DNA of 64,000 bases from positions 15,218 to 79,217 of the IMG/VR virus record IMGVR_UViG_2832220722_000003; one strand, given 5' to 3'. Of this stretch, positions 13,064 to 49,999 are shown in pieces (positions within the stretch are counted from its first letter, which is position 1; the number at the start of each line of letters is the position of its first letter). The translations under genes were made by a program, and so were the position numbers. The stretch comes from a virus. Its lineage: Duplodnaviria; Caudoviricetes. Below the pieces are notes generated by a model, which was given only the letters and a program-made list of their open reading frames with translations, did not search any database and had not been told where the DNA came from.

Positions 13064-13097
13064 GCGCGCATGCTCGCGGGCGCATGCCGATGCGTCG

Positions 13098-13109: not shown

Positions 13110-13117
13110 GGGCTGTC

Positions 13118-16335: not shown

Positions 16336-16396
16336 GTCATGTTCCAGTCAATGAAGCCATGAAGCGGGCCGAAGCCCGCCCCGCTCCGGCCACCGC

Positions 16397-16876: not shown

Positions 16877-16950
16877 GTCGGCCTCCAGAGATTGAGAGAG
16901 GGGAAGGAGTCAGGGCCAGCCGCGTGTGCAGCCGGCCCCAGGTCGATCCA

Positions 16951-18243: not shown

Positions 18244-18253
18244 GTCTGGCTCC

Positions 18254-19291
18254 TTAAACGGTGCGGTTCAGCCAGGCCTCGATCTGCTCAGGCGTCATGC
18301 CTTGCGTCGCACTGAGCATTTCGGGGCCGGACATATCCGCCGTGCGGTCCAGGGCGGTAGCGCCGCCCGCGTGCCCACCAGGAATGCTGGAAAGGCTCGC
18401 AGGGGCTTCGCTCCTGGCTGCCGCGATGGCGGCGCTGGCGGCGGCCTTGGTGTCGGCTGCCGCAGTGGTGTTGGTCTTCGGCGTGGTCGCCGCCTTGAAG
18501 GCGTCGAACACCTCCACGATTTGCTCGGCCGTGCCACCCGTCTTGTGGTCGAACAGCCCCCAATAGGCGCTGCGCACGGCACTGGGCTGGGCATCCACCC
18601 AGGCCTTGAACTCGCTGCTCTGCGCAATCGAGTCTGCGTCGGGGTGCTTGCCGTAGATGGCCTCGTAGTGGGCGGCCGCAGCGTCCTGCTGCTGCTTGGC
18701 TTGCAGGGGCTTCAAGGCTTCTGCCACGCGGGCACCCACCTGTTCCGCCACCTTCAGATCAACCAGCGTCTGGATGCCCTTGGCCAGTGCTTCCTCGGAG
18801 AAATCCCCGAACAAGTTCGCGTCCGCGCCCGCGTTAATGGCCGCCTGTGCCTGGGCTGCCATCGTGTCGGTCTTGGTCGCGGCCTCGCCCGCGTCCGCCC
18901 GCGCCTGGGCCTGCGCCTGCAGCTCGGCCAGCGCTTGCTGGGCGGCTTCTGCCTGCGCTTTCCAGTGCTGCTCGCCTTCGCGGTGCTTGACCAGCGTCTC
19001 GTAGGGGATGGTGTGTTTGCCATCGCGTGCCAGCACCACGGCCTTCGCGGGGTCTTCCGCGTCGGCCGGGGTGTTGGCGTCCTTCGGGTCACTGGCGGCG
19101 GCTGCCGCGTCGGCATTGCTCTTGGCCGTCTCATCGCCACCGGCAGCGCCCTTGTCGTCCGTCGCAGGGGTGGTCGCGGGCGCGCCACCGTTGTCCGGCT
19201 GGGCGCCGGTATCGCCCTCACCCAGGCTCAGGGCCTGTAGTGCCTGCTCCGGCGTCAGTGCGCCGTCGATGTTGGAGTAATCGAATTCCAT
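18254..19291 (-). CDS. Capsid scaffolding protein
   Basis: Start refined to MEFDYSN; Ala/Asp-rich with coiled coil, DGKHTIPYETL; between portal and capsid. Confidence 0.8.
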   Translation of the reverse strand: MEFDYSNIDGALTPEQALQALSLGEGDTGAQPDNGGAPATTPATDDKGAAGGDETAKSNADAAAAASDPKDANTPADAEDPAKAVVLARDGKHTIPYETLVKHREGEQHWKAQAEAAQQALAELQAQAQARADAGEAATKTDTMAAQAQAAINAGADANLFGDFSEEALAKGIQTLVDLKVAEQVGARVAEALKPLQAKQQQDAAAAHYEAIYGKHPDADSIAQSSEFKAWVDAQPSAVRSAYWGLFDHKTGGTAEQIVEVFDAFKAATTPKTNTTAAADTKAAASAAIAAARSEAPASLSSIPGGHAGGATALDRTADMSGPEMLSATQGMTPEQIEAWLNRTV

Positions 19292-19449
19292 GTGTGATGT
19301 CGTCCTGCTTTCCCGCCACATATCGCCGTGGCCGCAAGGGGCCGCAATCCGGTGCAAGCGTTTGTCGTGCTTGCTCCATCTGCTATGTTTTCCGCAGCGC
19401 TCGCGCGCCCCGGGCTTCGCCATCCGCTCGCGCGTCCGGCTTGGGTGGC

Positions 19450-19490
19450 ACTGTCAATTCGGAGAGCAGATTCCCTAAGCCCTATACCGG
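19450..19490 (-). promoter_or_regulatory. Late-promoter motif ATAGGGCT-N22-GACAGT upstream of scaffold/capsid
   Basis: Variant of the motif at 13098 and 24613 with identical spacing to an nAnnnT hexamer. Confidence 0.55.
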
Positions 19491-19540
19491 GCGAGCACGA
19501 AAAAGCCGCCTCTGCGGGCGGCTGGATGGGGTGGCCTGGA

Positions 19541-21856
19541 TCAGGCTTGCAGGTTGTCGGCCATCTCCGGCGTCTCGATCCCGTTCATGCCCGTGGGCGG
19601 CTGCTGCGGCACGGGCGGAAATGCGGGGCTGGTGTTCTGGCGCACGGCCGGCGCCGCGCCCGCCTCCGCTTCGGTCTCGGGCACAGCCTCTGCGCCGCCG
19701 CCCTGGATGTACGGGTGCGGCACGTTCATCGCGGCGGTGGCGTCCGGCGTCGGGAAGTTGGGATCGTCGCCACCCGGCGTGGGCTTCTTGTAGCCCGCGC
19801 CCTGCATGATGGCGTCCGCGATGGGCGCGATCATGGGCATCTGCGCCACCTGCGCGCCGCCCTGCATGGCGCTGAATGCCGCCTGCACGCCGATCTGCAC
19901 GGCCTGCGCCATGATCTGCTTGATCTCGGCATCGGTCTTGCGCTCCTTCATGTCCAGCTCGCGCGCCTTCAACTCGTTGCCGGCCTCCTTGAGCGCCTGG
20001 GCCACGGCCTGCTGGATGCGCTTCTCCACCTGCTCGGGCGTCTCCTGCGCGCCGGCCTGCTGCAGCGCCTGCACCAGTTGCTCCTTGAAAGGCACATCCA
20101 TCAGCGAAGCCATGAGCGGCATCACCACGGCCTGGAACTGCGGCGGCAGGCCCTTCACCACCTCGCTCATTGCATTGAGCTGCTGGCCGCGATAGGTCCT
20201 GCTGCTCGGCACATCCTCCAGCCCCACCATGAGCCGCGTGCGCTGCAGGTCGTTCGACAGGTAGGGGTAGCCGGCCTCGTCCACCTCGGGGTGGTTGATG
20301 ACGATGGTGCGCGCGGGCGTTATGGCATCGCCCTCGATCACCACGGTGGTTTCCGTCTTCCCCATGTCCTGCACGATCATCGACATCAGCAACTCGCCCA
20401 CCTGGGTCCGGCCGCGCCGGAAGTTGCCCATCATGTGGGCCAGGCTCTGGTTGGCCTGCTCCACCTGGGTCTGCTCCTGCACGCCGCTAGTGGCCGTGCC
20501 GCGCCGGCCGGAGAAGGCCCCGGCCGCCGCCGGGTTCACGCGCTCGATGGCCTGCCGCGCGTTGGCCAGCATGTCGAGCTGCTGCGCGGTCAACTGGAAA
20601 TCGCGCTCCACCTTGAAGCGCGCGCCGGGCTGCGCCATGTGGGCCGCGTCCAACTCGACGTCGGCATCCAACCGTCCCACCGTGCGGCGGAAGACATCGG
20701 CGGGCATCGCCACGGCGCCCTTGGTGCGCTCCACGCGGTACGCGCTCATGCCCCAGCGCAAGCGCGAGTTCCCCGAGTTCAGCGTGTCCTGTTGGTAGAG
20801 CATGTTGCGGATGTACCCGAAAGGCACGCGCGTCTGTTCCTCGCGGAAGCCCCAGAACGGGACATAGGGGAAGTAGCGGTGCGCGTACGGCGTGGGGCCA
20901 TCAAACAGGACGTGAGGCCCCAGCCAGTAGCTGCGGCGCACCCGCGCCACCACCGCGCGCCGGAACTGCACCAGGCGGTTGGCCACGGCATGCACATGGG
21001 CGGGGTTGGCGTCGTCGAACTCCACCACGCGGCCGTCGCGGCTCTTGAGCACCACGACATCGACCCAGCGGCGATACCACAGCTCGGTCGCGCACACCTC
21101 CTTGTTGAACGGGTTGTACCAGCGGTCCTCGGCCACGGTCCAGGAGCGCGCCACGTCGAACGCCCGGTTCAGGCCCGTGCTGCCGCCGCCGTAGCCGACA
21201 TCGTCGAATTCTCTCCACCAGCCGATTCCCGCCTTGCCGAAGCGGCGGATCAGCTCCGCGTGCTGCGGGAACACGCGCGCAAGGCGGCTCGGGTGCATCC
21301 AGCGCTGGCGCCGCAGCCAGCGCGCGTCCGACAGGTCGTCCTCCGCGCTCGACCAGTCCCAGTGGATCTCGTTGCGGTTCACGGCCTTGCACTGGTAGGG
21401 GAAGGCGAACGGGTCATCGCCCTTGCTCACCTCCACCCAGCCCAGCCCGACCCCGATCTGCGAGTAGAAGGCCTTGCTGCAGGCGTCGTCGGCCTTGCTG
21501 TTGCGCTCGCTCTCGTTCAGCTTGAACGATATGGCGGCGGCCACGTCCTGCCCGCCCGGCTGCCCGTTGGCCGTCACGCGCCAGTCCGTGCGCGTGGCTT
21601 CCTCATGACCGCGAATGCCCTCCAGGGTCGCGCCGATCAGGTTCTCCATCGACGGCGGGATGCCCAGCCTGCGCTGCGCCTCCAGCAGCTCGGTCTTGAG
21701 TTGGTTGCCCTCGGCATAGTCCATTTCCCGGTCGGCAATGGGGCGCCACTCGCGCGGTTGGTTCTCGATTTCCTCGTGGATTTCACGGTACTCGGCCAGC
21801 GTCAACGCGCCGTCCGGGGTGTCCACCGGATCGATGGCGGTCTGTGTGTCTTGCAT
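19541..21856 (-). CDS. Portal protein (P22/podovirus-like)
   Basis: Start refined to MQDTQTA after GAGGA; DYAEGNQ, YFPYVPFWG and ATSGVQEQ motifs; follows TerL. Confidence 0.9.
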   Translation of the reverse strand: MQDTQTAIDPVDTPDGALTLAEYREIHEEIENQPREWRPIADREMDYAEGNQLKTELLEAQRRLGIPPSMENLIGATLEGIRGHEEATRTDWRVTANGQPGGQDVAAAISFKLNESERNSKADDACSKAFYSQIGVGLGWVEVSKGDDPFAFPYQCKAVNRNEIHWDWSSAEDDLSDARWLRRQRWMHPSRLARVFPQHAELIRRFGKAGIGWWREFDDVGYGGGSTGLNRAFDVARSWTVAEDRWYNPFNKEVCATELWYRRWVDVVVLKSRDGRVVEFDDANPAHVHAVANRLVQFRRAVVARVRRSYWLGPHVLFDGPTPYAHRYFPYVPFWGFREEQTRVPFGYIRNMLYQQDTLNSGNSRLRWGMSAYRVERTKGAVAMPADVFRRTVGRLDADVELDAAHMAQPGARFKVERDFQLTAQQLDMLANARQAIERVNPAAAGAFSGRRGTATSGVQEQTQVEQANQSLAHMMGNFRRGRTQVGELLMSMIVQDMGKTETTVVIEGDAITPARTIVINHPEVDEAGYPYLSNDLQRTRLMVGLEDVPSSRTYRGQQLNAMSEVVKGLPPQFQAVVMPLMASLMDVPFKEQLVQALQQAGAQETPEQVEKRIQQAVAQALKEAGNELKARELDMKERKTDAEIKQIMAQAVQIGVQAAFSAMQGGAQVAQMPMIAPIADAIMQGAGYKKPTPGGDDPNFPTPDATAAMNVPHPYIQGGGAEAVPETEAEAGAAPAVRQNTSPAFPPVPQQPPTGMNGIETPEMADNLQA

Positions 21857-21867
21857 GGTGGTGGTCC

Positions 21868-23610
21868 TCAATAGCAAACCGGCTCGGGGGCCTCGATGTA
21901 TCCCTGGCCGGCCGTTGCCAGGCTGTTCAGCAGCCCCAGTTCCTTGGCCTGGGCGTACTGGCGGTAGGCGTCCGCGCCCTCGCTGCAGCCGTTGCTCTTG
22001 TCGGGGTGGTCGTCCAGGTAGCGGGCGTCGGCCGTGCTCCACTTCTTCTTGTAGTTCGCCAGCCGCTCCACGCCCTCTTTCGTGCCCTCCAGGTCGAACC
22101 ACGCCGCCTTGAGGTGCTTGCGTGCCGCGTAGATGCCGGTCATCAACTGCGTGGTGCGCGGCACGATGAAGAAGGTCTGCCCGGGCAGCAGGTCCTGCAA
22201 CTGCTCCTTGGTGGACTTGTTGTAGTCGCTCAGGCGCTTGTGGTCGGCGTCATGCGGCAGGAAGTGGGCGCCGTACAGGAAGCCGCGGCGCTGCAACTCG
22301 ACCGCGTAGTGCCGCAGATCCTCGTTGTGCCCCTCGTAGTAGCCGATGAAGCGGTCTTCCTGGCCCAGCATCTGCATGAACCAGATGGCGCAGCCGTCGC
22401 TGTTGCCGATGTCCCAGAACGTGTAGACGGGCAGATCCAGCACGGGCACCTGGGTAATGCCGCCGCGCTTGCGCAGGATCATCAGCTCCTTGGCGAAGTA
22501 GTTGCCCGCCACGCTCTGCTGGAAGGCCTCGGCCGGCGTGCTCGGGTACTCGCGCCACATCCGCTCCTCGGCGCCCGCGAAGTCGTTGCGCTGCTTCTCC
22601 GCGTACCAGGCACGCTGCCCCAGGTCGATGGTGCAGCCCATCAGCTGCTCTATCTCGGCAAAGTAGTCGTGCAGCTCCCGGCTGATGGGCACGCCGGCCG
22701 GGTCCATCGAATACTCCGGCTCCTGCCACCAGGCGTAGAAGTGGAAGCGGTACTGCGATCTGGTCAGCTTGGCCGCACCCACCACCAGCGCCTGGGCGCG
22801 CTGGCACATTTTGTAGAACTCGCCATCGGTGCCCTCGGCCGTGGACTCAACCACGATGATCCCGCTCAGGGGAACGGCCTGAAACGAGCCCGTCACCACT
22901 TCCTCGGCCTTGGCCGGGAACTTGGCGCAAATCTTGCCGAACTCGGAGACGTGCAGCCGGTGGATGGTGCCGCCGCGCACCGACGTGGCCACGCGCATGC
23001 TGCTGTTGTTGTGCGCGAACAGCAATTCCTTGGTGCTCGCGCGCGCCAGCGGGAAGCGCTCCCGAATCTCCTGCGGCAGGTGGTCGTAGGCGAACACCAC
23101 CTTGTCGCGGAAGATCGCCTCGGCCGTTTCGCGATCCTGCGCGATCATGCCGCAGCGCTGGTTGCTGTTCCAGAGCGCGTGATCGAGCCAGAGGATGGCG
23201 ATCAGGGTGGTGAAGCCGAGCTGGCGCGCCTTGAGGATCAGGTTGCGGTGCCACAGCCGCACGATGAAGCGGCGCTGCGCGCGATTGGGCTTGAAGGGCT
23301 GGACAAAGCTCTCGTCGTCGTCTTCTCCCTTGACGATGATCTGGTAGAGCACGCCCGAGAACAGGCGCCACTCCACATCAGCCAGGCACCGCGCCAGCTC
23401 GTCGCGATCGGTGGGCAGGTGCTCGGGCGGGATGACATGCGGTCCACGCCTGGGCCGGCGCTCCGCCTTGGCATCCCAGTTGCAGCCCAGCTGCGCGTCC
23501 AGGTCGCGGCCGCGCTCCACGTCGATGACGGCCTCGTCCTCGTCCAAGCAGCCGGGTTCCGCCGCGGCGCCGCGCGCGGCACGGGCACGCTGTGGGTGCT
23601 TAGTCGCCAT
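21868..23610 (-). CDS. terL: Terminase large subunit
   Basis: ILKARQLGFTT Walker A, LHVSEFG, ESTAEG, WDIG nuclease motif. Confidence 0.95.
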   Translation of the reverse strand: MATKHPQRARAARGAAAEPGCLDEDEAVIDVERGRDLDAQLGCNWDAKAERRPRRGPHVIPPEHLPTDRDELARCLADVEWRLFSGVLYQIIVKGEDDDESFVQPFKPNRAQRRFIVRLWHRNLILKARQLGFTTLIAILWLDHALWNSNQRCGMIAQDRETAEAIFRDKVVFAYDHLPQEIRERFPLARASTKELLFAHNNSSMRVATSVRGGTIHRLHVSEFGKICAKFPAKAEEVVTGSFQAVPLSGIIVVESTAEGTDGEFYKMCQRAQALVVGAAKLTRSQYRFHFYAWWQEPEYSMDPAGVPISRELHDYFAEIEQLMGCTIDLGQRAWYAEKQRNDFAGAEERMWREYPSTPAEAFQQSVAGNYFAKELMILRKRGGITQVPVLDLPVYTFWDIGNSDGCAIWFMQMLGQEDRFIGYYEGHNEDLRHYAVELQRRGFLYGAHFLPHDADHKRLSDYNKSTKEQLQDLLPGQTFFIVPRTTQLMTGIYAARKHLKAAWFDLEGTKEGVERLANYKKKWSTADARYLDDHPDKSNGCSEGADAYRQYAQAKELGLLNSLATAGQGYIEAPEPVCY

Positions 23611-24577
23611 CGGGCACTTCCTCACGCGGCATGAGCGCGTTCCCTCCAGGCGCTGGCGCGGCCGGCGCCGCCGGTGCTTCCGGGTCGTCCGCCACGGGCA
23701 AGAGACTGCTGCTGTTGCCAGCGGCGATGCGGTGCAGCAGCGCGGCCAGCGGGTCGGCCTTCTGCTGGTTGTCCTTCTCGTAGAGGCCCAGGTGCTTTGC
23801 CAGCTTCTCCAAAGCGTCCAGCTTGGAGTGCATCTTTATCTCGATGCCCTCCTTCGTCTGCTTGGCACCGGCATACAGCGCCGCGGCGCGCGGGCTCAGG
23901 TGGCGCGTGTCCTTGAGCACAGTGCGCGCCTGGCCATCGCCGCCACATATGGGGCAGTCGTCCTTGGGCAGCAGCAGCGGGTTGAAGCCAATACCGCCAG
24001 CCTCATCGAACTCGGCAGGGTTCTTGCCCTTCTCCACCCAAGCCTCGCGGTCGCGGTTCATTTCGCCCACGGTGCGCTGGTACTTGTGGCCCTCGCCGTA
24101 GCAGCAGCGACAGCAGCCGGTTTTGACCTCCACCAAGTCGCGGGCGTCCGCCAGAGCCACGTTGGCAATCTCCATCAACACCATGTCTGCCGTGATGGCC
24201 GTGCGCTCCTGCTGGGCTTGGCGCGCTATCGAAATCGCAGCTTGAATGTAAGGTTTTGACAGGTTCTCTGCCCCAATCTGGCGGGCGGTTTCAGCGCTGT
24301 ATCCGGCGCGGATCGCCGCCTGCGTCGCGTTGAGGTCCACCAAGTATTCGTCCACGAATCGCTGCTGTTTCTCGGTCAAGCCAAGCTGCGGCGCCTCCTT
24401 CACGCTCTCTTTTTTGATGGCCGCGCGGGGCTTGCGCACCACCTTCGTGGGGGCCTTCTCGGGCGCGGTGCGCTTCGGTGCAGGCGCGGCTTTGCCCGCC
24501 GCCTTCTTCGCTGGGGCTGCGGGCTTCTTCGTGGACTTGCGGGGCGCAGGCTTCTTTCCTGCCGGAGGTGTTGCCAT
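23600..24577 (-). CDS. terS: Terminase small subunit with Cys-rich insertion
   Basis: LTEKQQRFVDEYLVDLNATQAAIRAGYS; KLDALEKLAKHLG; CCRCC…CPIC. Confidence 0.92.
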   Translation of the reverse strand: MATPPAGKKPAPRKSTKKPAAPAKKAAGKAAPAPKRTAPEKAPTKVVRKPRAAIKKESVKEAPQLGLTEKQQRFVDEYLVDLNATQAAIRAGYSAETARQIGAENLSKPYIQAAISIARQAQQERTAITADMVLMEIANVALADARDLVEVKTGCCRCCYGEGHKYQRTVGEMNRDREAWVEKGKNPAEFDEAGGIGFNPLLLPKDDCPICGGDGQARTVLKDTRHLSPRAAALYAGAKQTKEGIEIKMHSKLDALEKLAKHLGLYEKDNQQKADPLAALLHRIAAGNSSSLLPVADDPEAPAAPAAPAPGGNALMPREEVPDGD

Positions 24578-29239: not shown

Positions 29240-30124
29240 TCAGCTCTCCAAGATCGTTGCGTAGGCCGACGCGTGCTTGTGCTGTTCGGCTGGGTGGCTG
29301 GCGGCGGGGATGCCGGCGGACCACTGCGTGCGGTAGCCCTCGGCGCTCGACAGCAGCAGCCCCACGTCGTGCATGCGCTGCACCACGATGCGCTCGGTCA
29401 CGCGGTCCACGTAAAAGGCTGCTACCTGCGGCGATTCCTCGTAGCCCAGGCGCTGGACGAGTTGCTTCACCTTCGCATTCACCGTCGCGTTGCGGACGGG
29501 CTTGGCGCCGTAGCGCTTCGCGTAGGCGGCGCTGTAGGCGGCCCAGGTGGCGCGGCATGCCGCCTGCAGCTCGGTTTCCTTCGCGTCAGCCGGGACGGCC
29601 TTCACCTTCGTGACCGGCTGCGCAGCGGCCGGTAAAGGTTCATTGATGGTTAGGTGACGGTTCCCCTGATGATTTGGGGGCGGCATTTGCCCCTCTGGAG
29701 GGGCGGCATTTGCCGGTGGTGGGGCGGCATTTGCCCCACCTGGGGCGGCATTTGCCGGAGGGGCGGCATCTGCCAGGGGGGCGGCATTTGCCCCAGGGGC
29801 GGCATTTGCCGGCGCCTTCTTGCGCTGGGTCGCGCGCTTGCTGGCGGCTGGCGCCTTTTTCGGATCGAAGCGCTTCGGGGTAACGGTGTAGTTCGTGCTG
29901 GTGTTGTGGCGGTACTCGCGGAATACCGCGCCGGCCGACTGCAGCCACGCCAGCGCATCGCGCACGGCGCGCTCCGACAGGCATGTGCGATCCGTCAGCG
30001 TCTTCACGGACGGCCAGCACACGCCGTCATCGTTGGCCTGGTCCGCCAGCGAAATCAGCACGGCTTTCTGCGCGGGCGACATTCCCTGCAGCGGCCAGCA
30101 CTCGGCCATGATGATGGTGCTCAC
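29240..30124 (-). CDS. Replication initiator (HTH, lambda O-like) containing origin iterons
   Basis: KAVLISLADQANDDGVCWPSVKTL…LSERAVRDAL; internal ANAAP repeats. Confidence 0.85.
   Translation of the reverse strand: MSTIIMAECWPLQGMSPAQKAVLISLADQANDDGVCWPSVKTLTDRTCLSERAVRDALAWLQSAGAVFREYRHNTSTNYTVTPKRFDPKKAPAASKRATQRKKAPANAAPGANAAPLADAAPPANAAPGGANAAPPPANAAPPEGQMPPPNHQGNRHLTINEPLPAAAQPVTKVKAVPADAKETELQAACRATWAAYSAAYAKRYGAKPVRNATVNAKVKQLVQRLGYEESPQVAAFYVDRVTERIVVQRMHDVGLLLSSAEGYRTQWSAGIPAASHPAEQHKHASAYATILES
29677..29810. repeat. Seven iterons GGGGCGGCAT(T/C)TGCC, phage replication origin
   Basis: Copies at 29677, 29700, 29721, 29742, 29760, 29778, 29796 within the initiator gene. Confidence 0.85.
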
Positions 30125-30432
30125 TGACCGCCCTCCATGCTGCGCAGGCCGCGCATCGCCAGCGTGCGCATGGCCTTCACCTCGTCGGCATTGATCAGGT
30201 GCGCGTCCTCGGGCACAACCTTCAGGCCCAGGCCGGTCAGCAGCAGCGCCACCTGCTCAATCTGCTCAGACTTCCAGCGGCTTATGGTCGATTCCGAGGT
30301 GCCAAGGGAACTCGCCAGCTTCGATTGGCCAATCTCCGCAAGCTGGTTGCGCAAAGCGGTTTCGGTCTTGCGTGCTCTTTCACGCAGGTCTTGGGACACT
30401 TCAGGCATGCGTTGCTTCCTGTTCGATTTCAA
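30121..30432 (-). CDS. cII: CII-like transcriptional activator
   Basis: GQSKLASSLGTSESTISRWK…LGLKVVP matches the lambda CII family. Confidence 0.8.
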   Translation of the reverse strand: MKSNRKQRMPEVSQDLRERARKTETALRNQLAEIGQSKLASSLGTSESTISRWKSEQIEQVALLLTGLGLKVVPEDAHLINADEVKAMRTLAMRGLRSMEGGQ

Positions 30433-30630
30433 TCACCGCCCCGCCCTCCAGGAGCTTCGTGGGACGATGGGCCATTGGCGCGGTGAGGCCGCTGTCATAG
30501 GCAATGACTGCCCCGGCGGGCAGAACGTGGGGACGGTCAGTCATGGGTGAACTCCTGGTGGTGGGTGCCCGCCACTCCCCGGGCTACGATGGGCTTTCCA
30601 CAGCAACCATCAACCACAAGGAGGGCGGGC

Positions 30631-30879
30631 ATGAAAACGCTTTCGAGCGAGCAAAAAAGAATTGCGGAACTGCAAGGGCAGTTGCATGCAATGCGTACCT
30701 GCATCACAGCGCTCCTCGTTTCCATGCCGTCAGAGCAGCAGCAAGCCTTTGCCGCCAAGTTGGAGCACTTGGCAGAATGGGCGACGGCCAACGCTCTTGG
30801 GTCAGAGGCTCCGGAGGAGATGACTCAGGCGTTTGCCGACGAACTTCAGTCCATCCGCGCTCTATTCGCCGTACGCTAG
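30631..30879 (+). CDS. Small hypothetical protein, antisense to the early-right operon
   Basis: AAGGAGG SD before ATG; 82 aa. Confidence 0.55.
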   Translation: MKTLSSEQKRIAELQGQLHAMRTCITALLVSMPSEQQQAFAAKLEHLAEWATANALGSEAPEEMTQAFADELQSIRALFAVR

Positions 30880-31046
30880 CCTCCAAGCCTGCTTTGGCGA
30901 GTTCCATCCGAGCGTCGTGGAAGTCCTTGAGCCCGTCATCGGCGCAGACGGTGGCGACAGGTCGCCGGATCTCCGCAGGGCTTGCGGTCAGCGTCTGCGC
31001 CCTTTCGTGGCGCAGTTGAAGGCCGAGGCATAAGGCCGTGGGAAGC

Positions 31047-31325
31047 TCAGCCATGAACTCCATCCGGCACGCGCTTGCTCGCCTCCCATGCTTGCGCGGG
31101 TTCTTGGGTGGGGAAGGAGGGCAAAGGCAGGGAGCCGTAGATGTGGTCGAACGACAGCGACACACCAAAGGTGGCGGCGAAGTCGATCACCTTGCGTGCC
31201 ATGTCCGGCGGGAGGGTTTGCCCGCGCTCGTAGTTCGCCACGTTGCTCTGGGTGCAGCCGAGGCCTTGTGCCAGCGCCTGCTGAGTGACTGCGAGACGCT
31301 CGCGAATGGACTTGAGGTTGTGCAT
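31047..31325 (-). CDS. cro: Cro-like XRE repressor
   Basis: LKSIRERLAVTQQALAQGLGCTQSNVANYERG; divergent from cI. Confidence 0.85.
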   Translation of the reverse strand: MHNLKSIRERLAVTQQALAQGLGCTQSNVANYERGQTLPPDMARKVIDFAATFGVSLSFDHIYGSLPLPSFPTQEPAQAWEASKRVPDGVHG

Positions 31326-31328
31326 TCC

Positions 31329-31403
31329 TCAAGTATCAGCGGCGCTTGTTTTTCTGTCAACCAGCGGCGCTTGTTTGCAATTATTTGTCACGCTGATACT
31401 TGA
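31329..31403. promoter_or_regulatory. OR-like region: operators and divergent PR/PRM-like promoters
   Basis: CAGCGGCGCTTGTTT at 31337 and 31362; 13-bp inverted repeat 31329-41/31391-403; minus-strand TTGACA-17-GATACT; plus-strand GATACT 7 nt before the cI ATG. Confidence 0.85.
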
Positions 31404-31407
31404 TCCC

Positions 31408-32166
31408 ATGAGCGAATCGAACAAGAAGGCCACCGTGACGGATGAGCATCGCGAAGAGGCTCGTGCGCTCAGAGCCATATGGGAACAGGCAAAGCCCGCG
31501 AGCCAGAAGGAATTCGGTCGCGAGTTCGGTATTGGCGGACAGGCCGCAGTGAGTGCTTTTCTGGCTGGCAAGTCCGCTCTCAGCCTTAAAGCGGCGACCG
31601 GCTTCGCCACTGGCCTCGCCTGCCGCATCGAAGATTTCAGTCCACGCTTGGCCGCGAGCGCTTCTCAAGTCGCCGAGGTGACGGGAGCCCAAGGAGAAGA
31701 ATCAGCACGTCCGCCAGCCACCGAAATGCGTGAGCCAAAGGTGCCGGCCGGCTACGTCCGCCTTCCTGTGTTGGCCGAGGCAGCAGCGGGTGCCGGCCGC
31801 GCACCTTTGCCTGAGGTGGTGAAGTACGTGGATGTGCTGGAGAGTTTCATCCGGCAGAGGTTCAACCGTAACCCGCACTCACTTAAGGTGCTCACGGCTC
31901 GCGGCAACAGCATGACCGGAGATATTGAAGACGGCGACGTGATGTTCGTGCAGCCGACGAACGAGTTCACGGATGACGGCATCTACGTGCTCACCTTGGA
32001 CGACCTGATCCGCGTGAAACGGTTGAGCGTATCGCTCATCTCTGGCCACGTGGTCATCGAGAGCAACGATGGCCGGAAGCCGGAGGAATTGCCCTTGCGC
32101 GAGGTGCCGCACCGCCTGCATATTCAGGGCCGCGTGATCGGCGCTTGGTCGCTGCGGACGTTCTGA
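31408..32166 (+). CDS. cI: CI-like repressor (HTH plus S24 peptidase)
   Basis: HTH SQKEFGREFGIGGQAAVSAFLAG; AGAG cleavage region; RGNSM serine and VKRL lysine motifs. Confidence 0.9.
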   Translation: MSESNKKATVTDEHREEARALRAIWEQAKPASQKEFGREFGIGGQAAVSAFLAGKSALSLKAATGFATGLACRIEDFSPRLAASASQVAEVTGAQGEESARPPATEMREPKVPAGYVRLPVLAEAAAGAGRAPLPEVVKYVDVLESFIRQRFNRNPHSLKVLTARGNSMTGDIEDGDVMFVQPTNEFTDDGIYVLTLDDLIRVKRLSVSLISGHVVIESNDGRKPEELPLREVPHRLHIQGRVIGAWSLRTF

Positions 32167-32561
32167 TGCGCCGCGCGTTTCTGATGGTCTCGGCAGGGGC
32201 GCTGTTGTGTGCTCCCGTCTGGCCCGCAAGCCCCTCATGCTGGATCGGCGCCAAGTGCATCAAGAGCCAAGGCACATCGATCCCGGTTTCGACGGTCCAC
32301 AACATGTTGGACCGCTGTGGAGAGTTCACGGCAGGCGGCGTCGGGCGCCGCGTCCTTCGTATGTCTATTCAACAGATACAACAGGCGTCAGGCGGAAATA
32401 TTCTGCACCCCGTCTTCTCCGCTTACCACGCATTCACCGAACTCTACGATAGTCCACTACTGTTTGATCGACAGTCGAATGTTGAGAGCACCAACTATGA
32501 ACAAATCGCCAGCGCCTGTGCGAAGCTCAGCCGCGACTATGAAACCTGGCTGAACAAATGA
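32166..32561 (+). CDS. Secreted/periplasmic hypothetical protein
   Basis: TGATG coupling to cI; N-terminal signal-peptide-like segment; Cys pairs. Confidence 0.7.
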   Translation: MRRAFLMVSAGALLCAPVWPASPSCWIGAKCIKSQGTSIPVSTVHNMLDRCGEFTAGGVGRRVLRMSIQQIQQASGGNILHPVFSAYHAFTELYDSPLLFDRQSNVESTNYEQIASACAKLSRDYETWLNK

Positions 32562-32851
32562 AGTCGGCGTGGTTAAGCCTGCTGCTGGGCGCCCTGCTCC
32601 CCCTTTCTGCCGAGCCCAAAATCCCGCGCGACCGCAACGAGGTCCGCGCCTTCCGTGCCGAGCACCCCTGCCCGGCCACGGGACGGATTCGAGGCGCTTG
32701 TCCTGGCTACCACGTTGACCATGTGATTCCCCTCTGCGCTGGCGGGCTGGACCGGCCGGTGAACATGCAGTGGATCACCCGGGAGGACCATCGCTGGAAG
32801 ACGTTCGTGGACGTGCGCGAGTGCCGGAAATTGAAGAAGGAGCAGCCTTGA
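32558..32851 (+). CDS. HNH endonuclease with signal-peptide-like N-terminus
   Basis: CPATG…CPGYHVDHVIPLCAGG…NMQW…H. Confidence 0.8.
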   Translation: MKSAWLSLLLGALLPLSAEPKIPRDRNEVRAFRAEHPCPATGRIRGACPGYHVDHVIPLCAGGLDRPVNMQWITREDHRWKTFVDVRECRKLKKEQP

Positions 32852-33117
32852 TCCTGACCCTGAAAATCGACAAGATCGAGCCCGGCCGCTATCGCGCCGT
32901 CGTCCTTGATGGTCGTGAAGAGATGGACGAATGGGGCGCCTCCGGCATTGGTGATGCCATCCGTCAGTGCGGCCAAGCCCAGATGCCGGACCTGTCGGGC
33001 TTCCACATCTGGTACGAGCACGTCTGCGCGGGCACCATCTCCATGAGCAACATGCGCATCGACCCCGAAGGCATCGCCCAGCGGCTGATGTCGTTGCATA
33101 GCTCCATCAAAGGCTGA
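32848..33117 (+). CDS. Hypothetical protein
   Basis: TTG start after AAGGAG, overlapping the previous stop. Confidence 0.6.
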   Translation: MILTLKIDKIEPGRYRAVVLDGREEMDEWGASGIGDAIRQCGQAQMPDLSGFHIWYEHVCAGTISMSNMRIDPEGIAQRLMSLHSSIKG

Positions 33118-33120
33118 CCA

Positions 33121-33324
33121 ATGACCAATGCCCCTCGCCTCCAATACACCAGCGTCAGAACCCGCATCATAGACGGAGTGCCGCTCATCGGCCTGAGGCA
33201 CACAGCCAAGGGCGCCGCCGACATGCCGATCAAGACTGTCTGGATCGAAATGCCACCAGAGGACGTGGAACGGTTGATCAAGACGCTGCAGGAGACGCTC
33301 GCCGAGTTGGGCGCAAGCGACTGA
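33121..33324 (+). CDS. Hypothetical protein
   Basis: 67 aa ORF in the operon. Confidence 0.55.
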   Translation: MTNAPRLQYTSVRTRIIDGVPLIGLRHTAKGAADMPIKTVWIEMPPEDVERLIKTLQETLAELGASD

Positions 33325-33374
33325 CTGAAGGTCACCATCGAATTGAGAGTAGCGCTGCAAGGTGATAGCGAAAT

Positions 33375-33407
33375 CCTAATAGCGGAACTATTAGGCCGTG
33401 CTACAGT
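33375..33407 (+). promoter_or_regulatory. Palindromic operator plus extended -10 upstream of the TA pair
   Basis: CCTAATAG-N5-CTATTAGG, then TGCTACAGT. Confidence 0.55.
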
Positions 33408-33417
33408 CCAAATTGCT

Positions 33418-33912
33418 ATGCAATCCACACAAGGCCGCATCAACATCGCCCGCATGACGCCAGTAGGCGCTCAGGCGTTTGCCGCGCGCAACCTGGAACT
33501 GCTGGCCGCCATCGAGAACACCCTCGACGCATTGAGCGCTGACACAAATCTTCTGCACGCCATTCACGCCGGCTATCGGGAAATTCACGAGAAGCTGGAA
33601 GGCACCGCCACCGCCATCGATGAGGGGGGGCGCATCCAGGGCATACTGGACAAGGCTGGTGCATCCTGCGCTCGCATCTACCACGATGCATGCCAGCGTC
33701 ATCAAAGCGCATGCCAAGACCCACAGTTGCGCCCTGACGACGGCGTGGCAGACGCCTACAGCGCCTTCATCGACGCGCTGCGCGAGTTGCACGACACCAT
33801 CGAGTACCTGCGCGAATGGATCGCCACGCATGATGCCGTACTGCAACCCACCACAGGAACGGTGTACGCCAGCGCAGACGATCTGTTTGCCGCCCTGCTG
33901 CCCCGTCATTGA
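33418..33912 (+). CDS. Putative antitoxin (helical)
   Basis: Overlaps the toxin start; C-terminal VYASADDLFAAL resembles RelB/DinJ-type tails. Confidence 0.6.
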   Translation: MQSTQGRINIARMTPVGAQAFAARNLELLAAIENTLDALSADTNLLHAIHAGYREIHEKLEGTATAIDEGGRIQGILDKAGASCARIYHDACQRHQSACQDPQLRPDDGVADAYSAFIDALRELHDTIEYLREWIATHDAVLQPTTGTVYASADDLFAALLPRH

Positions 33913-34202
33913 GCCGCATCACCATCACCGGCCTAGCAAATTCCGATCGGTTCGCATCGGATTTGCGCAGCGCGCCAGCAGAAGTGCAACGAGCCGCCCT
34001 GGAGGCCATCAGGCTATTGCAGACCAACCCCGGAGCTAAATCGCTGCGCCTACACAACCTCAAGGGCATGCCCAAACCCACCATCTGGAAGATCGACGTG
34101 TACGCCAACCATGCCTGGCAGATCACCTTTGAGATGAACGGCCAAGTGGCAGAACTAAAGCGACTAGGCACGCACAAGACCATTGACCGCGATCCGCGCT
34201 GA
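33909..34202 (+). CDS. RelE/YafQ-superfamily toxin
   Basis: SLRLHNLKG…WKIDV…ITF…LKRLGTH. Confidence 0.7.
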   Translation: MSRITITGLANSDRFASDLRSAPAEVQRAALEAIRLLQTNPGAKSLRLHNLKGMPKPTIWKIDVYANHAWQITFEMNGQVAELKRLGTHKTIDRDPR

Positions 34203-34221
34203 ATAGCCTACTCGCCTACAC

Positions 34222-34249
34222 AAAGCCGCCCACCGAGGCGGCTTTTTTT
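34222..34249 (+). terminator. Intrinsic terminator of the immunity operon
   Basis: AAAGCCGCC-N6-GGCGGC-T7. Confidence 0.85.
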
Positions 34250-34287
34250 CGTCTGTTGGATGGTGGGCATGGGGGGTGTAGCAAAAA

Positions 34288-34332
34288 AAACAAGCGCCGC
34301 TGATTGACATGTAAACAAGCGCCGCTGATAAT
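34288..34332 (+). promoter_or_regulatory. PL/OL-like early promoter with two operators
   Basis: TTGACA(34304)-17-GATAAT(34327); AAACAAGCGCCGCTGAT at 34288 and 34313 (reverse complement of the OR repeats). Confidence 0.9.
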
Positions 34333-34674
34333 TCCTCATCGACACAACGAACCCCAGCAGACGGATGTGGAAGCTGGAGCGAAGGCAAGGCAATGCCGGT
34401 TCGGTCGGGTGAATCCTGCGCTGCAGGCTCTCCCTGGCACCACGTCGGTGGGCACCACGGCATCGACCAGGCTGCTCTAGTTCTCGCAGCTTGGCAGGCT
34501 GGGTAAACAAAGCACCTCCGCGGTCGGCAGCGGGTTAAAAGAGGCCGCCCCCGCTCTACCACTCGCACGCCGCCCGGATGGGATCACGGTGTAAATGCAG
34601 CGATCTGGGAAAGGCCGGTCGAAGTCCACACCCTGGGGCCGAATACGGGGTTGAGGCGCGGCGCCAAGAACAGA

Positions 34675-35006
34675 AAGCCGATGGGTGAAGACGACCCACC
34701 ACAACGGTCATGCCGGTTGGAATCCCGGCGCAGTCCTCGCAAGAGGGCCATCACGCATGCCGGTTGACCTGTCTGCAGCAGGGATCAATGGCCGCATTCG
34801 GGAAACAGCGTGGGCAGGCCCCACTGCGATCCTGAGTCCCAGCCCGAGATTGCAGCCGGCAGTCGTGATGGTTGCGCATGACTGGAAGCCCTCGGCGCTA
34901 CGGCGCTCAGGCGGCAGACAGACCTGTGACGGCGCGGCGCGGCCTTACGGCCAAGCGGCCTATGGAATGCAGCCCGAAAAATGCGGAAGGTAGCCCGCAA
35001 CCATCA
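34675..35006 (+). ncRNA. Putative structured RNA in the long leader of the early operon
   Basis: Long-range stems 34748-66/34853-71 and 34866-76/34996-35006; GCAA and UACG tetraloop hairpins; no convincing ORF. Confidence 0.4.
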
Positions 35007-35147
35007 ACCATTTCCCAACCGCGCCGAGCAGCGCAACTACCGCCCTCCCCCTCTCTTTTGCTCGGCATGCCCAAGCGGCAAGCGGCTTTCTTTTTTCCAC
35101 GGCCCTCCACGCGAGGGCTTTTTCTTTTCCACCACCAGGAGCACACA

Positions 35148-35720
35148 GTGCACATCACCCTCAACAACCCGACCTTCAATTTCCAGGCGCCACCCGCCGA
35201 CTTCTTCGCCGTACTGCTGCGCGGCAAAGAACCTGACACCACGGCGCCAGCAGTAACAAAGGCCGTCTCTGGACGCCCGCAGATCGGCGAATACTGGGCC
35301 GGCCAAGGCGGCATCTACGCGGGCGACTTCCGCGCCGGTGACGGTTTGACCTACGGCCTGATTGCCGCGCCCGATCAGGACATCGGCCGCGCCACATGGG
35401 GCCCCAACGGCAAGCGCGATCTGTCTGGCTGGGATGGGCTGGAGAACACCCGCAGCCTCATCAAAGAGAGCCCCGCAGCCAAGCTGGCCGCCGGCTACAC
35501 CCGCGACGGGCACAGCGATTTCTACCTACCCGCCCACCGCGAGCTGCTGCTGGGCGCGGCCAACCTGTACGAGACATTCGGCACGGAGTCCTGGTATTGG
35601 ACGAGCACGCCATACGCCAACGACTACGCAAAGGCCTTCGACTTCGAGACCGGGCACTGCCTCTACTACAGCCGCGACCACGAGTTCCGCGTCCGGCCCT
35701 TCCGCAGATTCATTTATTGA
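35148..35720 (+). CDS. DGR target protein 1 (DUF1566/C-type-lectin-fold-like) with C-terminal VR
   Basis: GTG after CAGGAG; GEYWAGQGGIYAG, DFYLPAHREL, WYWTST; VR matches TR. Confidence 0.9.
   Translation: MHITLNNPTFNFQAPPADFFAVLLRGKEPDTTAPAVTKAVSGRPQIGEYWAGQGGIYAGDFRAGDGLTYGLIAAPDQDIGRATWGPNGKRDLSGWDGLENTRSLIKESPAAKLAAGYTRDGHSDFYLPAHRELLLGAANLYETFGTESWYWTSTPYANDYAKAFDFETGHCLYYSRDHEFRVRPFRRFIY
35633..35706 (+). repeat. DGR variable repeat VR1
   Basis: 74 bp; 9 mismatches to TR, all at TR adenines. Confidence 0.95.
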
Positions 35721-35762
35721 GCCCTTCACCCATTCCTCTCATCACCACAGCAGGAGCATCCA

Positions 35763-36182
35763 GTGACCACCGAAGCCAAAACGCGCATCCCCGCCCTCAA
35801 CACGCCCTGGCCCGAGCAGGGCGGCATTTACATCGGCTCGCGCCTCGTCAACGGCGCTGTCCACCATGTCGTGATCGCTGACGGCGGCACGGCCCGCGAC
35901 CTCACGGGTCAGAACTTCAAGGCCGCGCAGAACGTTCAGTTCGGCGAGATTGACGGGCACAGCGACTGGCACGCAGGCGACCAGGAAGACCACATGCTGG
36001 CCTACATCAACGGCCGCGAGCACTTCAAGCAGGAAGACGACAGCATCTACTGGACGCGCGGCGAGCACCACGGCTGGCCCTGGGCCTTCGACTTCGAGGA
36101 CGGGCACTGCAACGGCAACTACCGCTACTACGAGTTCCGCGTCCGGCCCTTCCGCAGTTTTCCCGATTCATCCATTCAGTAA
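35763..36182 (+). CDS. DGR target protein 2 (DUF1566-like) with C-terminal VR
   Basis: WPEQGGIYIG, GHSDW, YWT; VR matches TR. Confidence 0.9.
   Translation: MTTEAKTRIPALNTPWPEQGGIYIGSRLVNGAVHHVVIADGGTARDLTGQNFKAAQNVQFGEIDGHSDWHAGDQEDHMLAYINGREHFKQEDDSIYWTRGEHHGWPWAFDFEDGHCNGNYRYYEFRVRPFRSFPDSSIQ
36083..36156 (+). repeat. DGR variable repeat VR2
   Basis: 74 bp; 7 mismatches to TR, all at TR adenines. Confidence 0.95.
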
Positions 36183-36185
36183 TTC

Positions 36186-36200
36186 GCGGGCGTAGCCCGC
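36186..36200 (+). other. DGR target-recognition hairpin candidate
   Basis: GCGGGC-GTA-GCCCGC about 30 nt after VR2. Confidence 0.6.
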
Positions 36201-48406: not shown

Positions 48407-48666
48407 CTACCAGCCCCACCATGAGCCTGGTCGAAGCAGCCGACACGCTCAAGATGCACCCCCACACCCTGGAGAAACTGATCCGCGCGGGCGAAATAGC
48501 GGCAGGCAAGCCCGGCCGCTCCTACGTGCTGCTGACGCGCGACGTGCTGGCCTACGCCGAGAAGATCATCCTGCGGGACACAGCCGACCGCATCCGCGCG
48601 GCGCGGGCGGCATCACCACAGCGCGGCCGAAAGATCGCTACCCCGCAGGTTCGCGTAGCGCATTAG
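48403..48666 (+). CDS. xis: Excisionase-like HTH protein
   Basis: MSLVEAADTLKMHPHTLEKLIRAGEIAAGKPGRSY; adjacent to integrase. Confidence 0.75.
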   Translation: MTTSPTMSLVEAADTLKMHPHTLEKLIRAGEIAAGKPGRSYVLLTRDVLAYAEKIILRDTADRIRAARAASPQRGRKIATPQVRVAH

Positions 48667-49746
48667 CATGCGCTGACTCTTGTGGCCCGTGATTTTCATG
48701 ATCTGAGTTTCCGAGAGCTTCGTGCGCTCAAACAGGCGGCTTGTGGCCTCGTGCCGCAGGTCGTGAAACTTCAAGTCCTTGCACTTGGCGACATCAAAAA
48801 TGCCTGGGTTGCGGTTGTTGTGGAACAACTTGCTCAGGTAGTCGCTGGTTTCGGCCCGGTCTTCTTCTTCCCCGCTCCACCATGGGAACAGCAGCGCAGC
48901 AGGGTCAGGCGCAGGCCCGTGCGCGGCCGCGATGTAGCTTTTCAGCTCCGCGATGGCCACGGTGGTCAGCGGCACCTGCCGCTTGTCCCCGTTCTTGGTC
49001 CTGTCCAGGAACACCGTTTTCTTGGCGAGATCCACCTGCCCCAGCGTCAGCGTGAACATTTCGCTCAGGCGCATGGCCGACTCCAGCGCCAGCATGTACA
49101 GGCAGCGCACCGCGGCAACGTGCTCTAGCTTGCGCTCGCGCTGCTTGCGCGGCAACACGCCAGCCTCGATCACCCCCAACACCTTCTCGTGCTCTCCCGG
49201 CTCCAGCCGCCGATCCCGCTCGATGTCCTCGCGCTTCACGCCGGCATGGGCCTCGTCCGTCTTGGTGTACTGCGCGTAGCCATCGGGCAGCGTGCGCAAT
49301 GGATGGTCCGGCATCACCAGATAGCCCTTGCGCATGCCCCAGTCGGTGCAGCGCGCCAGCGCCCCTACCCTTTGGCGGATCGTGGCCGGCGCCAATTTCT
49401 CCACGCGCTTCATTTCCGAGATCCACTCGTCCACCCAGGCGGACGTGATGGCCGTCAGCGGATGCCCGCCATGGACTTTCAGCACCACCCCCAGCGCCCC
49501 CTGGTCCTTTGCCGATGGGTGGGCGTCCTGCTCGTACAGGCGCACCAACTGCTGGATGTTCAGCGGCTTGTCTGGCGCGCGCAATTCTGTGGGCACGATG
49601 CCGCGCGACAGCAGGGCGTCCAGGCGGGCTGCGTACTCGTCGCCCTCCTGTTCGCTGGAGAACGTCATGTAGAGGGGCTTGTCCAGCACCCCCGCCTTTT
49701 TGAAGACGTACTCCCAGCCGTTCGCCCGCTTTCTCTTGCCAGCCAC
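48613..49746 (-). CDS. int: Prophage tyrosine integrase
   Basis: AMRLSE, TKNG, FHDLRHEA, TGH…RY. Confidence 0.95.
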   Translation of the reverse strand: MAGKRKRANGWEYVFKKAGVLDKPLYMTFSSEQEGDEYAARLDALLSRGIVPTELRAPDKPLNIQQLVRLYEQDAHPSAKDQGALGVVLKVHGGHPLTAITSAWVDEWISEMKRVEKLAPATIRQRVGALARCTDWGMRKGYLVMPDHPLRTLPDGYAQYTKTDEAHAGVKREDIERDRRLEPGEHEKVLGVIEAGVLPRKQRERKLEHVAAVRCLYMLALESAMRLSEMFTLTLGQVDLAKKTVFLDRTKNGDKRQVPLTTVAIAELKSYIAAAHGPAPDPAALLFPWWSGEEEDRAETSDYLSKLFHNNRNPGIFDVAKCKDLKFHDLRHEATSRLFERTKLSETQIMKITGHKSQRMLMRYANLRGSDLSAALW

Positions 49747-49923: not shown

Positions 49924-49999
49924 TGGTGGGTGCTAACGGGGTCGAACCGCTGACCTACGCCTTGTAAGGGCGCCGCTCTACCAACTGAGCTAAGCACCC
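49924..49999 (-). tRNA. tRNA-Val(TAC), prophage attachment site
   Basis: GGGTGCTTAGCTCAGTTGGTAGAGC…CTTACAA…GGTTCGACCC…CACCCACCA. Confidence 0.95.

Follow-up and report, generated by a model that had tools for sequence, protein, structure and literature searches.

The stretch of DNA analyzed here (the window) comprises 64,000 nucleotides with 65% G+C, bases 15218 to 79217 of a 79,217-bp provirus record of the Caudoviricetes (IMG/VR record IMGVR_UViG_2832220722_000003). It carries a diversity-generating retroelement (DGR) with two small target genes, a gene for the accessory protein Avd, a template repeat (TR) and a reverse transcriptase (RT) gene, and each target gene contains a variable region (VR) near its 3' end (Table 1). 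The DGR is complete and active, with recent mutagenesis. It is located on the arm between cI and int of a lambdoid genome, with cI upstream on the same strand, and its promoter shares operators with the promoter of a cro-like gene.

Composition and recent activity of the DGR

Beyond the TR and the two VRs, the full 79-kb record contains no copy of the 74-mer, indicating that there is no remote target. All mismatches between the TR and the VRs lie at TR adenines (9 of 9 in VR1 and 7 of 7 in VR2), and the three repeats are identical across their last 25 nt and diverge right after. A GC-rich hairpin follows VR2. None was seen after VR1, yet both VRs vary between samples. Only 19 nt separate the TR from the start of the RT gene, leaving no room for a spacer RNA. 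The closest solved chain to the RT is 8ub7_A, labeled 'Reverse transcriptase' (E 1.4e-35), which is presumably the BPP-1 enzyme. Avd scored 59.2 bits against NCBIfam DivGenRetAVD, under the cut-off of 80. Its frame extends into the RT-15 motif, which makes it about 20 aa longer than in the related loci L014 and L015.

The evidence for activity comes from assembled contigs only. Among the DNA contigs of run X2 that cover 33800-38100, all 16 differences in eight listed pieces fell at VR positions corresponding to TR adenines, and the other six listed pieces were identical to the window. The contig of run X1 that spans the targets had 15 differences, and the 12 listed were VR positions at TR adenines; five other pieces of this run showed no differences and one 180-nt leader piece showed six. 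Across the other runs, 23 variant VR positions beyond the TR/VR mismatches of the window were found, all at TR adenines. The pieces of run X13 were mostly 90 to 95% alike and derive from relatives. These results indicate that near-identical copies of the phage differ essentially in their VRs only.

Table 1. Features of the DGR locus and its surroundings (positions in the window)
Feature	Position	Strand	Remarks
Cro-like helix-turn-helix (HTH) regulator	31050-31325	-	HTH_31/HTH_3; phrog_4; heads the rightward-type early operon (cII-like, O-like, packaging, head)
Early promoter, cro side	31360-31332	-	TTGACA-17-GATACT; directly before the cro-like gene
Operator copies, cro side	31335-31350, 31360-31375	-	One mismatch
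CI-like repressor with Peptidase_S24 autocleavage domain	31408-32163	+	phrog_4 4.2e-31; PF00717 1.7e-16
Terminator-like hairpin and T run closing the cI-side gene block	34222-34245	+	Just upstream of the DGR-side promoter; homologous hairpin in L003
Operator copies, DGR side	34289-34304, 34314-34329	+	Exact
Early promoter, DGR side	34304-34332	+	TTGACA-17-GATAAT; 11/12 consensus positions
Noncoding leader	34333-35100	+	No codon-position GC bias
Terminator-like hairpin (7 pairs, 5 G-C) and T run	35101-35119	+	29 nt before the target 1 start codon
Target 1, 190 aa	35148-35720	+	GTG start, AGGAG ribosome-binding site; Lcl_C/DUF1566 C-type-lectin-like domain
VR1 (target 1)	35633-35706	+	
Target 2, 139 aa	35763-36182	+	GTG start behind AGGAG; DUF1566-like domain only
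VR2 (target 2)	36083-36156	+	
GC-rich hairpin, 6-bp stem, 3-nt loop	36186-36200	+	30 nt past VR2; read from the sequence
Avd accessory protein	36208-36669	+	phrog_3206 1.4e-29; PF22296 bAvd 54.8 bits (cut-off 40)
RT-15 RNA motif (Rfam RF03018)	36548-36727	+	134.5 bits (gathering score 82); overlaps avd 3' end, abuts TR
TR, 74-nt core	36725-36798	+	20 adenines, AAC codons
DGR RT	36818-37918	+	phrog_1423 3.5e-107; RVT_1 57.9 bits (cut-off 29.6)
Integrase	48616-49746	-	End of the cI-int arm
tRNA-Val	49924-49999		Beyond the integrase

Early promoters and shared operators

A scan of 30000-39000 for sigma-70-like promoters detected two sites only, on the cro side and on the DGR side, and no further site upstream of the DGR. 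The 16-mer AACAAGCGCCGCTGAT, whose core AGCG-C-CGCT is a 9-bp palindrome as read from the sequence, is present in four copies in the 64 kb (chance expectation, 0.87; none of 100 shuffles reached four). These form a pair at each promoter, 25 bp apart, that overlaps the -35 and -10 hexamers. The preliminary description of this locus, made from the sequence alone, had placed a consensus promoter overlapped by two operator copies in front of the DGR, and this was borne out, with the same 16-mer also found at the cro promoter. At locus L003, whose target 1 is 68% identical, the operator sequence differs, but the cro-side and DGR-side promoters still form a 30-nt inverted repeat and are 90% alike. 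The promoter pair therefore co-varies between the window and L003, which is the signature of a PR/PL-type immunity region.

Judged by these sequence features, the DGR belongs to an immunity-controlled early-left (PL-type) arm: it lies on the far side of cI, behind a promoter that carries the operators of the cro promoter. Repression would be exerted by the CI-like protein. Silence in the lysogen and early expression after induction or infection would follow from the established logic of lambdoid regulation.

The PL/OL region of lambda is a close model for this arrangement. In lambda, the repressor gene lies between divergent early promoters that have its operators in common, and a downstream terminator is overcome by antitermination. 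The window resembles it in its divergent promoters with shared operators, in an int-ward arm that carries accessory, recombination and restriction-alleviation genes and in a terminator downstream of the promoter. The window differs in having two operators per promoter instead of three, in the lack of a detectable N-like frame, in a leader with a long conserved RNA-like element and in having a DGR as the first genes.

Leader RNA and terminator upstream of target 1

The interval between the promoter and target 1 (34333-35147, 815 nt) contains no frame with codon-position GC bias and no family match. The preliminary description had called the DGR the first gene block after the promoter. This holds insofar as no coding signal was found in the interval, but a leader with a conserved RNA-like module and a terminator intervene. 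The layout is also particular to this phage, because recombination genes precede the DGR in L007, L010, L014, L015, L018, L020 and L022.

Part of the leader (about 34437-34761) is conserved, and blastn detected blocks of it in L007, L010, L011 and L021, in each case shortly after a PL-like promoter. An 18-nt hairpin motif within it (34712-34729) had 41 exact matches in viral contigs. In the commoner form of the leader, a boxA-like 12-mer stands at the start, with constant spacing to the hairpin. Among 42 unique leader sequences, this 12-mer was found without mismatch in 13, with one mismatch in 6, with two in 2 and with three in 14; the opposite strand of the same sequences gave no match. A promoter-like site was detected upstream of the commoner form in 15 of 40 cases, versus none of 40 for the reverse strand. 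The orphan Rfam motif Burkholderiales-2 (RF02917) was found in 21 of the 40 commoner-form loci, always antisense to the strand modeled in Rfam. The Rfam strand is the opposite one relative to the boxA-like word, the upstream promoter and the excess of G-U pairs. A literature search, with subscription journals and supplements outside its reach, found no paper that contains the name Burkholderiales-2.

When 39 leaders were aligned together, RNAalifold predicted 11 pairs only. The two leader types align badly, and type A was therefore split off; its 34 sequences, of the commoner form, supported 10 compensatory pairs among 43 predicted pairs. The leader of the window is a variant without the boxA-like word and without an Rfam match to Burkholderiales-2. 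Folded as a single RNA of 801 nt it was not better than shuffled sequences (z-score, -0.55), and an Rfam search of 34150-35250 at E<=1 gave just two weak matches, both at the upstream terminator. One 349-nt contig from an RNA library covers 34360-34707, which is a weak hint, as such libraries can hold DNA. The contigs of the RNA-library run X17 lay on 33800-34211 and 34360-34707 and none across the DGR genes, the absence of a contig being uninformative. Taken together, the leader RNA is conserved and probably structured, and it is possible that it acts as a nut- or put-like antitermination element.

Leaders composed of the boxA-like word, a terminal invariant 18-nt hairpin and Burkholderiales-2 between them were seen downstream of early-left promoters in many Burkholderiales-type phages (L046-L086, L007, L010, L011 and L021). 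The window also has a 617-nt gap between the cro-like and CII-like genes (30433-31049) that has no family match, nor does the plus-strand frame 30547-30876. This gap could hold the rightward counterpart of the leader element. A comparison of the gap with the DGR-side leader found only a 13-mer in common, at ribosome-binding sites, and hence no evidence for paired nut-like sites. Traces of a decayed upstream gene were also looked for in the leader; the frames located before target 1 in six relatives, used as tblastn queries, gave no match in 34333-35147.

A hairpin with a T run precedes target 1 at equal distance in 10 of 42 loci, although the stem sequences and the upstream genes differ. These are L003 and L045 (on one contig), L007, L008, L009, L010, L012, L018 and L022, which are close relatives with eight distinct among them, and L043. 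In the cultured phage Magia, a terminator is annotated immediately upstream of target gene 47. We infer that the cassette brings its own 5' terminator and that early transcripts must become terminator resistant, plausibly through the leader. With the leader and a conserved terminator between promoter and target 1, the DGR is probably delayed-early.

Target proteins

The sizes given in the preliminary description, 190 and 139 aa, were confirmed from the GTG starts at 35148 and 35763. A search of 5.8 billion proteins yielded 187 relatives of target 1 of similar length, and the named ones are DUF1566/Lcl C-terminal domain proteins of Comamonas, Delftia, Rhodoferax and others. An alignment of 30 rows shows a dozen conserved N-terminal residues, a variable Ala/Pro-rich linker and a well-conserved domain, within which the VR positions are the only hypervariable columns. 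In the AlphaFold model of target 1 (predicted local distance difference test [pLDDT], 81.8), residues 1 to 44 are disordered and residues 45 to 190 are folded. The best solved match of the folded part is the Legionella Lcl C-terminal domain 8q4e (Foldseek E 1.9e-6; profile E 7.5e-4), and the next-best matches are C-type lectin-like domains. No Mtd chain is present among the 49 listed Foldseek PDB matches. The VR is located at the C-terminal end of the C-type-lectin-like domain, in target 1 according to the model and in target 2 by sequence similarity alone. Target 2 has no N-terminal extension, and its family is as conserved as that of target 1.

A simple hydropathy and motif scan detected no signal-peptide-like segment, lipobox, twin-arginine motif or membrane segment in either target. 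The same kind of scan of 120 homologues found a hydrophobic N-terminal window in 9, a lipobox-like motif in 1, an RR motif in 1 and a transmembrane-like segment in 1. The alignment and the scan revealed no conserved cysteine pair in the targets. The claims of the preliminary description that the targets have neither a signal peptide nor a fiber shaft agree with these results. For the shaft, the evidence is the disordered state of residues 1 to 44 and, more weakly, the absence of longer relatives of target 1 at E<=1e-5. The monomer structure prediction suggested by that description succeeded for target 1, with a lectin-like fold, but not for target 2. A comparison with predicted viral structures recovered the fold of target 1 in small DUF1566 proteins, one of them from Pseudomonas phage D3. 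The PADLOC defense models matched no family in target 1, target 2 or Avd and gave only generic RT matches for the RT, a result that is neutral with regard to function.

Two further DUF1566-like small frames are located downstream on the plus strand (41819-42172 and 42205-42615). Neither contains a TR-like repeat, and by their sequence they are apparently nondiversified paralogues.

Placement of the cassette in relatives

A scan of one genome per species yielded 37 loci. A full RT gene was present in 29, avd in 30 and the two-target layout in 16, and the order target-Avd-RT is kept in 29. Full 10-kb flanks were available for 20 loci, of which 18 were annotated; L036 and L037, both RT-less Trinickia loci, were dropped. 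Five of the 18 were annotated completely at E<=1e-10; in the other thirteen, annotated at E<=1e-15, the frames outside the cassette were limited to those of >=172 aa. Gene calls in the relatives were made with a heuristic based on G+C at third codon positions (GC3). Lysogeny, recombination or transposition genes surround the cassette in 17 of the 18 loci, and a CI-like gene lies upstream on the same strand in 12, in L019 by tblastn only. No head, tail or connector family was found within 10 kb in any of the 18 loci; one locus has a holin at the edge. L043 is a Mu-like locus in which transposase A/B and Gam are encoded upstream, and L031, which has no RT, is the exception and looks chromosomal. 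A metagenome scan for close relatives recovered only the contig of L003, and the first viral scan recovered one locus.

The records of cultured phages give the same picture. In all six (Haboob, vB_Pae_U9, phPA-G, Medea1, PAN70 and Magia) the target is encoded on the recombination and/or integrase arm, and in none is it beside head or tail genes. An annotated CI-like repressor lies upstream on the same strand in four of them. Avd and RT genes adjoin the target in Haboob, phPA-G and Magia but not in U9, PAN70 and Medea1. The carriers differ in virion type and lifestyle, comprising the P22/SU10-like phage of the window, Detrevirus according to record taxonomy, the myophage Magia and a Mu-like element. 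The same placement in such different carriers is hard to reconcile with a part of the virion.

Some relatives carry additional target-like frames. In Haboob (L001, 8385-8873), phPA-G (L004, 7383-7874) and U9 (L002, 8386-8874) the upstream frame of 162 to 163 aa is itself a DUF1566 protein, and these frames differ mainly at VR-like C-terminal positions. U9 keeps both DUF1566 frames, and no RT was found in the stretch examined. L038 and L039 are two identical 13-kb copies on one Burkholderiaceae contig, with several tandem target-1-like frames together with avd and RT genes. The Trinickia loci L031, L036 and L037 have one to three tandem target-1-like frames (one in L036) without avd or RT, and the annotated one, L031, has a nonphage neighborhood. 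These loci may hold cellular copies of the target family, either domesticated or ancestral.

Genome map of the provirus

PHROG and Pfam scans of 48 frames gave a lambdoid gene map. Leftwards from 31325 on the minus strand, the cro-like HTH gene is followed by genes for a CII-like protein, an O-like replication protein, an HNH protein, a resolvase, Ant, the small and large terminase subunits, a P22-type portal, the major capsid protein, an SU10-type adaptor and phrog_11341. On the plus strand, the CI-like S24 repressor gene is followed by a few small genes, the DGR, DUF2303, the two DUF1566-like small frames and genes for a Lar-like protein, a nucleotidase and DUF5131. The packaging and head genes closest to the DGR (15227-24577) are on the opposite strand and more than 10 kb away. 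Further left in the record, a tail-fiber-like gene without a VR is located at record position 12432-13505, about 37 kb from the DGR, and an endolysin gene is also present. The statement of the preliminary description that the targets are far from the virion genes was therefore correct.

The genes for head, adaptor and phrog_11341 are directly followed by a giant open frame (window 2-13063, minus strand), which comprises more than 4354 aa within the window and runs on to record position 13986 (L090). It contains LPD37, InPase and SNF2/ResIII/Helicase_C domains. We assume that it resembles a polyvalent protein, a kind presumably delivered together with the phage DNA.

Comparison with described DGR targets

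The DGR of phage BPP-1 (mtd-avd-TR-brt), the prototype of tropism switching, has the same kind of RT and a four-helix-bundle Avd partner. Its TR-to-VR changes are likewise adenine specific, with AAC codons, and its VR is also at the C-terminal end of a C-type-lectin-like domain. Mtd, in contrast, is a receptor-binding protein of the tail fiber tip encoded with the tail genes, according to the accessible text of Wu et al. 2018 (PMC5758913). The targets of the window are proteins of 190 and 139 aa that have no fiber part, lie outside any tail module and are preceded by a repressor-controlled early promoter, a leader RNA and a terminator. They can also be compared with category 'd' of the same survey (DUF1566/DUF823/Fib_succ_major; exemplar, Legionella LdtA), with which they share a DUF1566-type VR domain. 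About half of the category 'd' targets are described in that text as short proteins without another motif (PMC5758913). LdtA itself is a surface lipoprotein with an exposed variable end (PMC5758913), whereas the targets of the window have no lipobox, twin-arginine motif or signal-like segment. The words 'early,' 'intracellular' and 'cytoplasmic' are absent from the accessible text (PMC5758913).

Close parallels are the cultured phages Haboob, phPA-G and Magia, in which one or more small lectin-fold targets are followed by Avd and RT on the arm from cI to int or recombination genes. Haboob and phPA-G have, in addition, a second small VR-like DUF1566 frame just upstream. Unlike in the window, other genes lie between cI and the DGR in these phages; the identity to target 1 is about 42 to 44%, and the Magia targets are not matched by target 1. 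In its accessible part, the Magia announcement mentions 'relatively short reading frames' and proposes a change of host range, with the early position left undiscussed (PMC7883833).

Other DGR targets are also thought, in the available parts of the sources, to act inside cells, namely regulatory proteins of cyanobacteria and a viral CotH-like kinase cluster, PC_00012 (PMC7517822; 10.1101/2020.04.01.020958). These, however, are large multidomain signaling proteins rather than lectin-like domains that stand alone, and they have no tie to an immunity-controlled early promoter of a phage. A review-type article on DGRs in immunity considers, in its accessible part, cytosolic VR proteins for cellular defense and no phage early genes (PMC10053308). 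The literature search mentioned above found no description of DGR targets in a phage early operon.

Proposed function of the targets and alternatives

The anatomy of the cassette, the sharing of operators, the recent mutagenesis and the conserved placement were all observed. Our interpretation is that a working DGR resides in the early-left operon of a lambdoid provirus, where it is silenced by the repressor and induced early, and that its targets are intracellular binders rather than virion parts. We lean towards this interpretation, with considerable reserve. In the lysogen, the CI-like repressor bound to the two operators over the -35 and -10 hexamers would keep the RT and both targets silent. 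Upon induction or infection the promoter would fire and the leader RNA of about 800 nt would be made first. Read-through of the hairpin terminator, probably by antitermination, would then allow target 1, target 2, Avd, the TR RNA and the RT to be expressed together. As the phage DNA replicates, the 3' ends of both target genes would be overwritten with copies of the TR in which the RT has made adenine-specific errors, so that each progeny genome may receive its own pair of variants. In the next cell to be infected, the targets would most likely remain cytoplasmic and bind a variable factor of the host or of a rival phage, with anti-defense, host takeover or exclusion as possible roles. An early cytoplasmic protein acts in the very cell that its genome entered, and variant and genome would thus be selected together. 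The intracellular, nonvirion nature of the targets is well supported by their context and by the absence of export signals, but unproven.

Several points weigh against this interpretation. The export test was a crude, home-made hydropathy and motif scan and not a trained predictor. Both targets score under the curated Pfam cut-off of 34.9 for Lcl_C (PF07603), with 27.4 bits for target 1 and 20.3 for target 2; the resemblance is nevertheless real because a protein identical to target 1 carries the precomputed label PF07603.18 and because fold and profile match 8q4e. The model of target 2, with a pLDDT of 52.7 from a 16-row alignment, is unreliable. As for antitermination, the leader has no evident N-like frame and no boxA-like word within three mismatches. 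The terminator could merely hold expression very low, or it could mark an insulated insert. The preliminary description had proposed hypervariable intracellular binders made on induction or infection. The early-arm placement, the small stand-alone targets and the lack of export signals agree with it, but cytoplasmic action and the kind of ligand are, like CI repression and antitermination, steps that we infer. The basis for an anti-defense role is the neighborhood only, that is, the Lar-like protein, methyltransferases and Gam encoded in the same operons.

The most serious objection is that the targets could be accessory adhesins of the virion, made early and tethered through the N-terminal peptide of target 1, in which case the DGR would still serve adsorption through tropism switching. 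Long phage proteins with the annotations Peptidase S74, collagen repeat or 'Tail fiber protein' have the same DUF1566/C-type-lectin fold as their C-terminal module, and phrog_4245 is a profile of 583 positions. The conserved N-terminal dozen of target 1, followed by a flexible, disordered linker, could be a docking peptide for the virion or another partner. Roux et al., in the accessible part of their survey, regard viral DGR targets as mostly structural and unannotated ones as probably so (10.1101/2020.04.01.020958), and the host-range change proposed for Magia points in the same direction (PMC7883833). Against an adhesin, the cassette is on the early-left arm in 17 of 18 annotated loci and all six cultured phages and never beside head or tail genes, and one docking site would have to exist on P22/SU10-like, Detrevirus, myophage and Mu-like carriers alike. 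The phage moreover owns a separate tail-fiber-like gene without a VR, and target 2 lacks the N-terminal extension altogether. We consider a virion adhesin improbable; it keeps an appreciable minor share because the fold is that of known fiber tips and target 1 has an N-terminal peptide on a flexible linker.

Two further explanations appear less probable still. The targets might be soluble lectins freed by lysis that bind envelope glycans, debris or matrix, for example to spare the loss of progeny on dead cells. Such a role would suit a small soluble domain whose closest solved fold is the Legionella Lcl C-terminal domain, and release by lysis needs no export signal. A released protein, however, would serve all progeny of the burst alike, so that a variant gives its own genome no edge and selection for a DGR is weaker. 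Functions of this kind are also usually encoded by late genes, whereas the targets are in the early arm and have no conserved cysteines that could form disulfides. For these reasons release by lysis is thought unlikely. A similarly low probability is assigned to a largely selfish, insulated mobile DGR that brings its own 5' terminator into a permissive cI-int region and whose targets give the phage no specific benefit. The hairpin does move with target 1 into new surroundings (after SSB in L007, after RecE in L010 and after the leader in the window), accessory genes are usually carried on the early-left arm, and targets without an RT are found in U9, PAN70, Medea1 and L015. Both frames, the C-type-lectin scaffold and the invariant framework residues are nevertheless kept across about 190 homologues down to 35 to 40% identity, and 16 of 37 genome loci have the two-target layout. 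The VRs of otherwise identical copies differ and yet stay in frame, as expected under selection.

Within the preferred interpretation of intracellular binders, a more specific proposal is that temperate phages of Burkholderiales and Pseudomonas practice a form of host-range switching after entry. In each lytic round, a cytoplasmic library of lectin-fold binders would be made from the immunity-controlled promoter within minutes of infection, and single variants would neutralize a strain-specific defense protein of the host or a resident rival phage. This proposal is put forward as a tentative one that is rather doubtful at present.

Implications

According to the current paradigm, phage DGRs diversify the receptor-binding tip of the tail and so follow a changing cell surface. 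The locus described here and about 30 relatives form a coherent class outside that paradigm, in which small stand-alone lectin-fold targets are predicted to be cotranscribed with the RT from a repressor-controlled early arm, in carriers with differing virion modules and lifestyles. If the targets act inside the cell, the reach of diversification by DGRs would widen beyond adsorption to the arms race within the cell. Cultured carriers exist, namely Haboob and phPA-G for Pseudomonas and Magia for Burkholderia, which makes the class directly testable. The layout of operators, leader RNA and travelling terminator may also serve as a model for the timing of mutagenic retrohoming, which would be off in the lysogen and on during lytic growth. 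If the proposal of host-range switching after entry is true, the targets would represent the first hypervariable, antibody-like anti-defense repertoire known from a bacterial virus.

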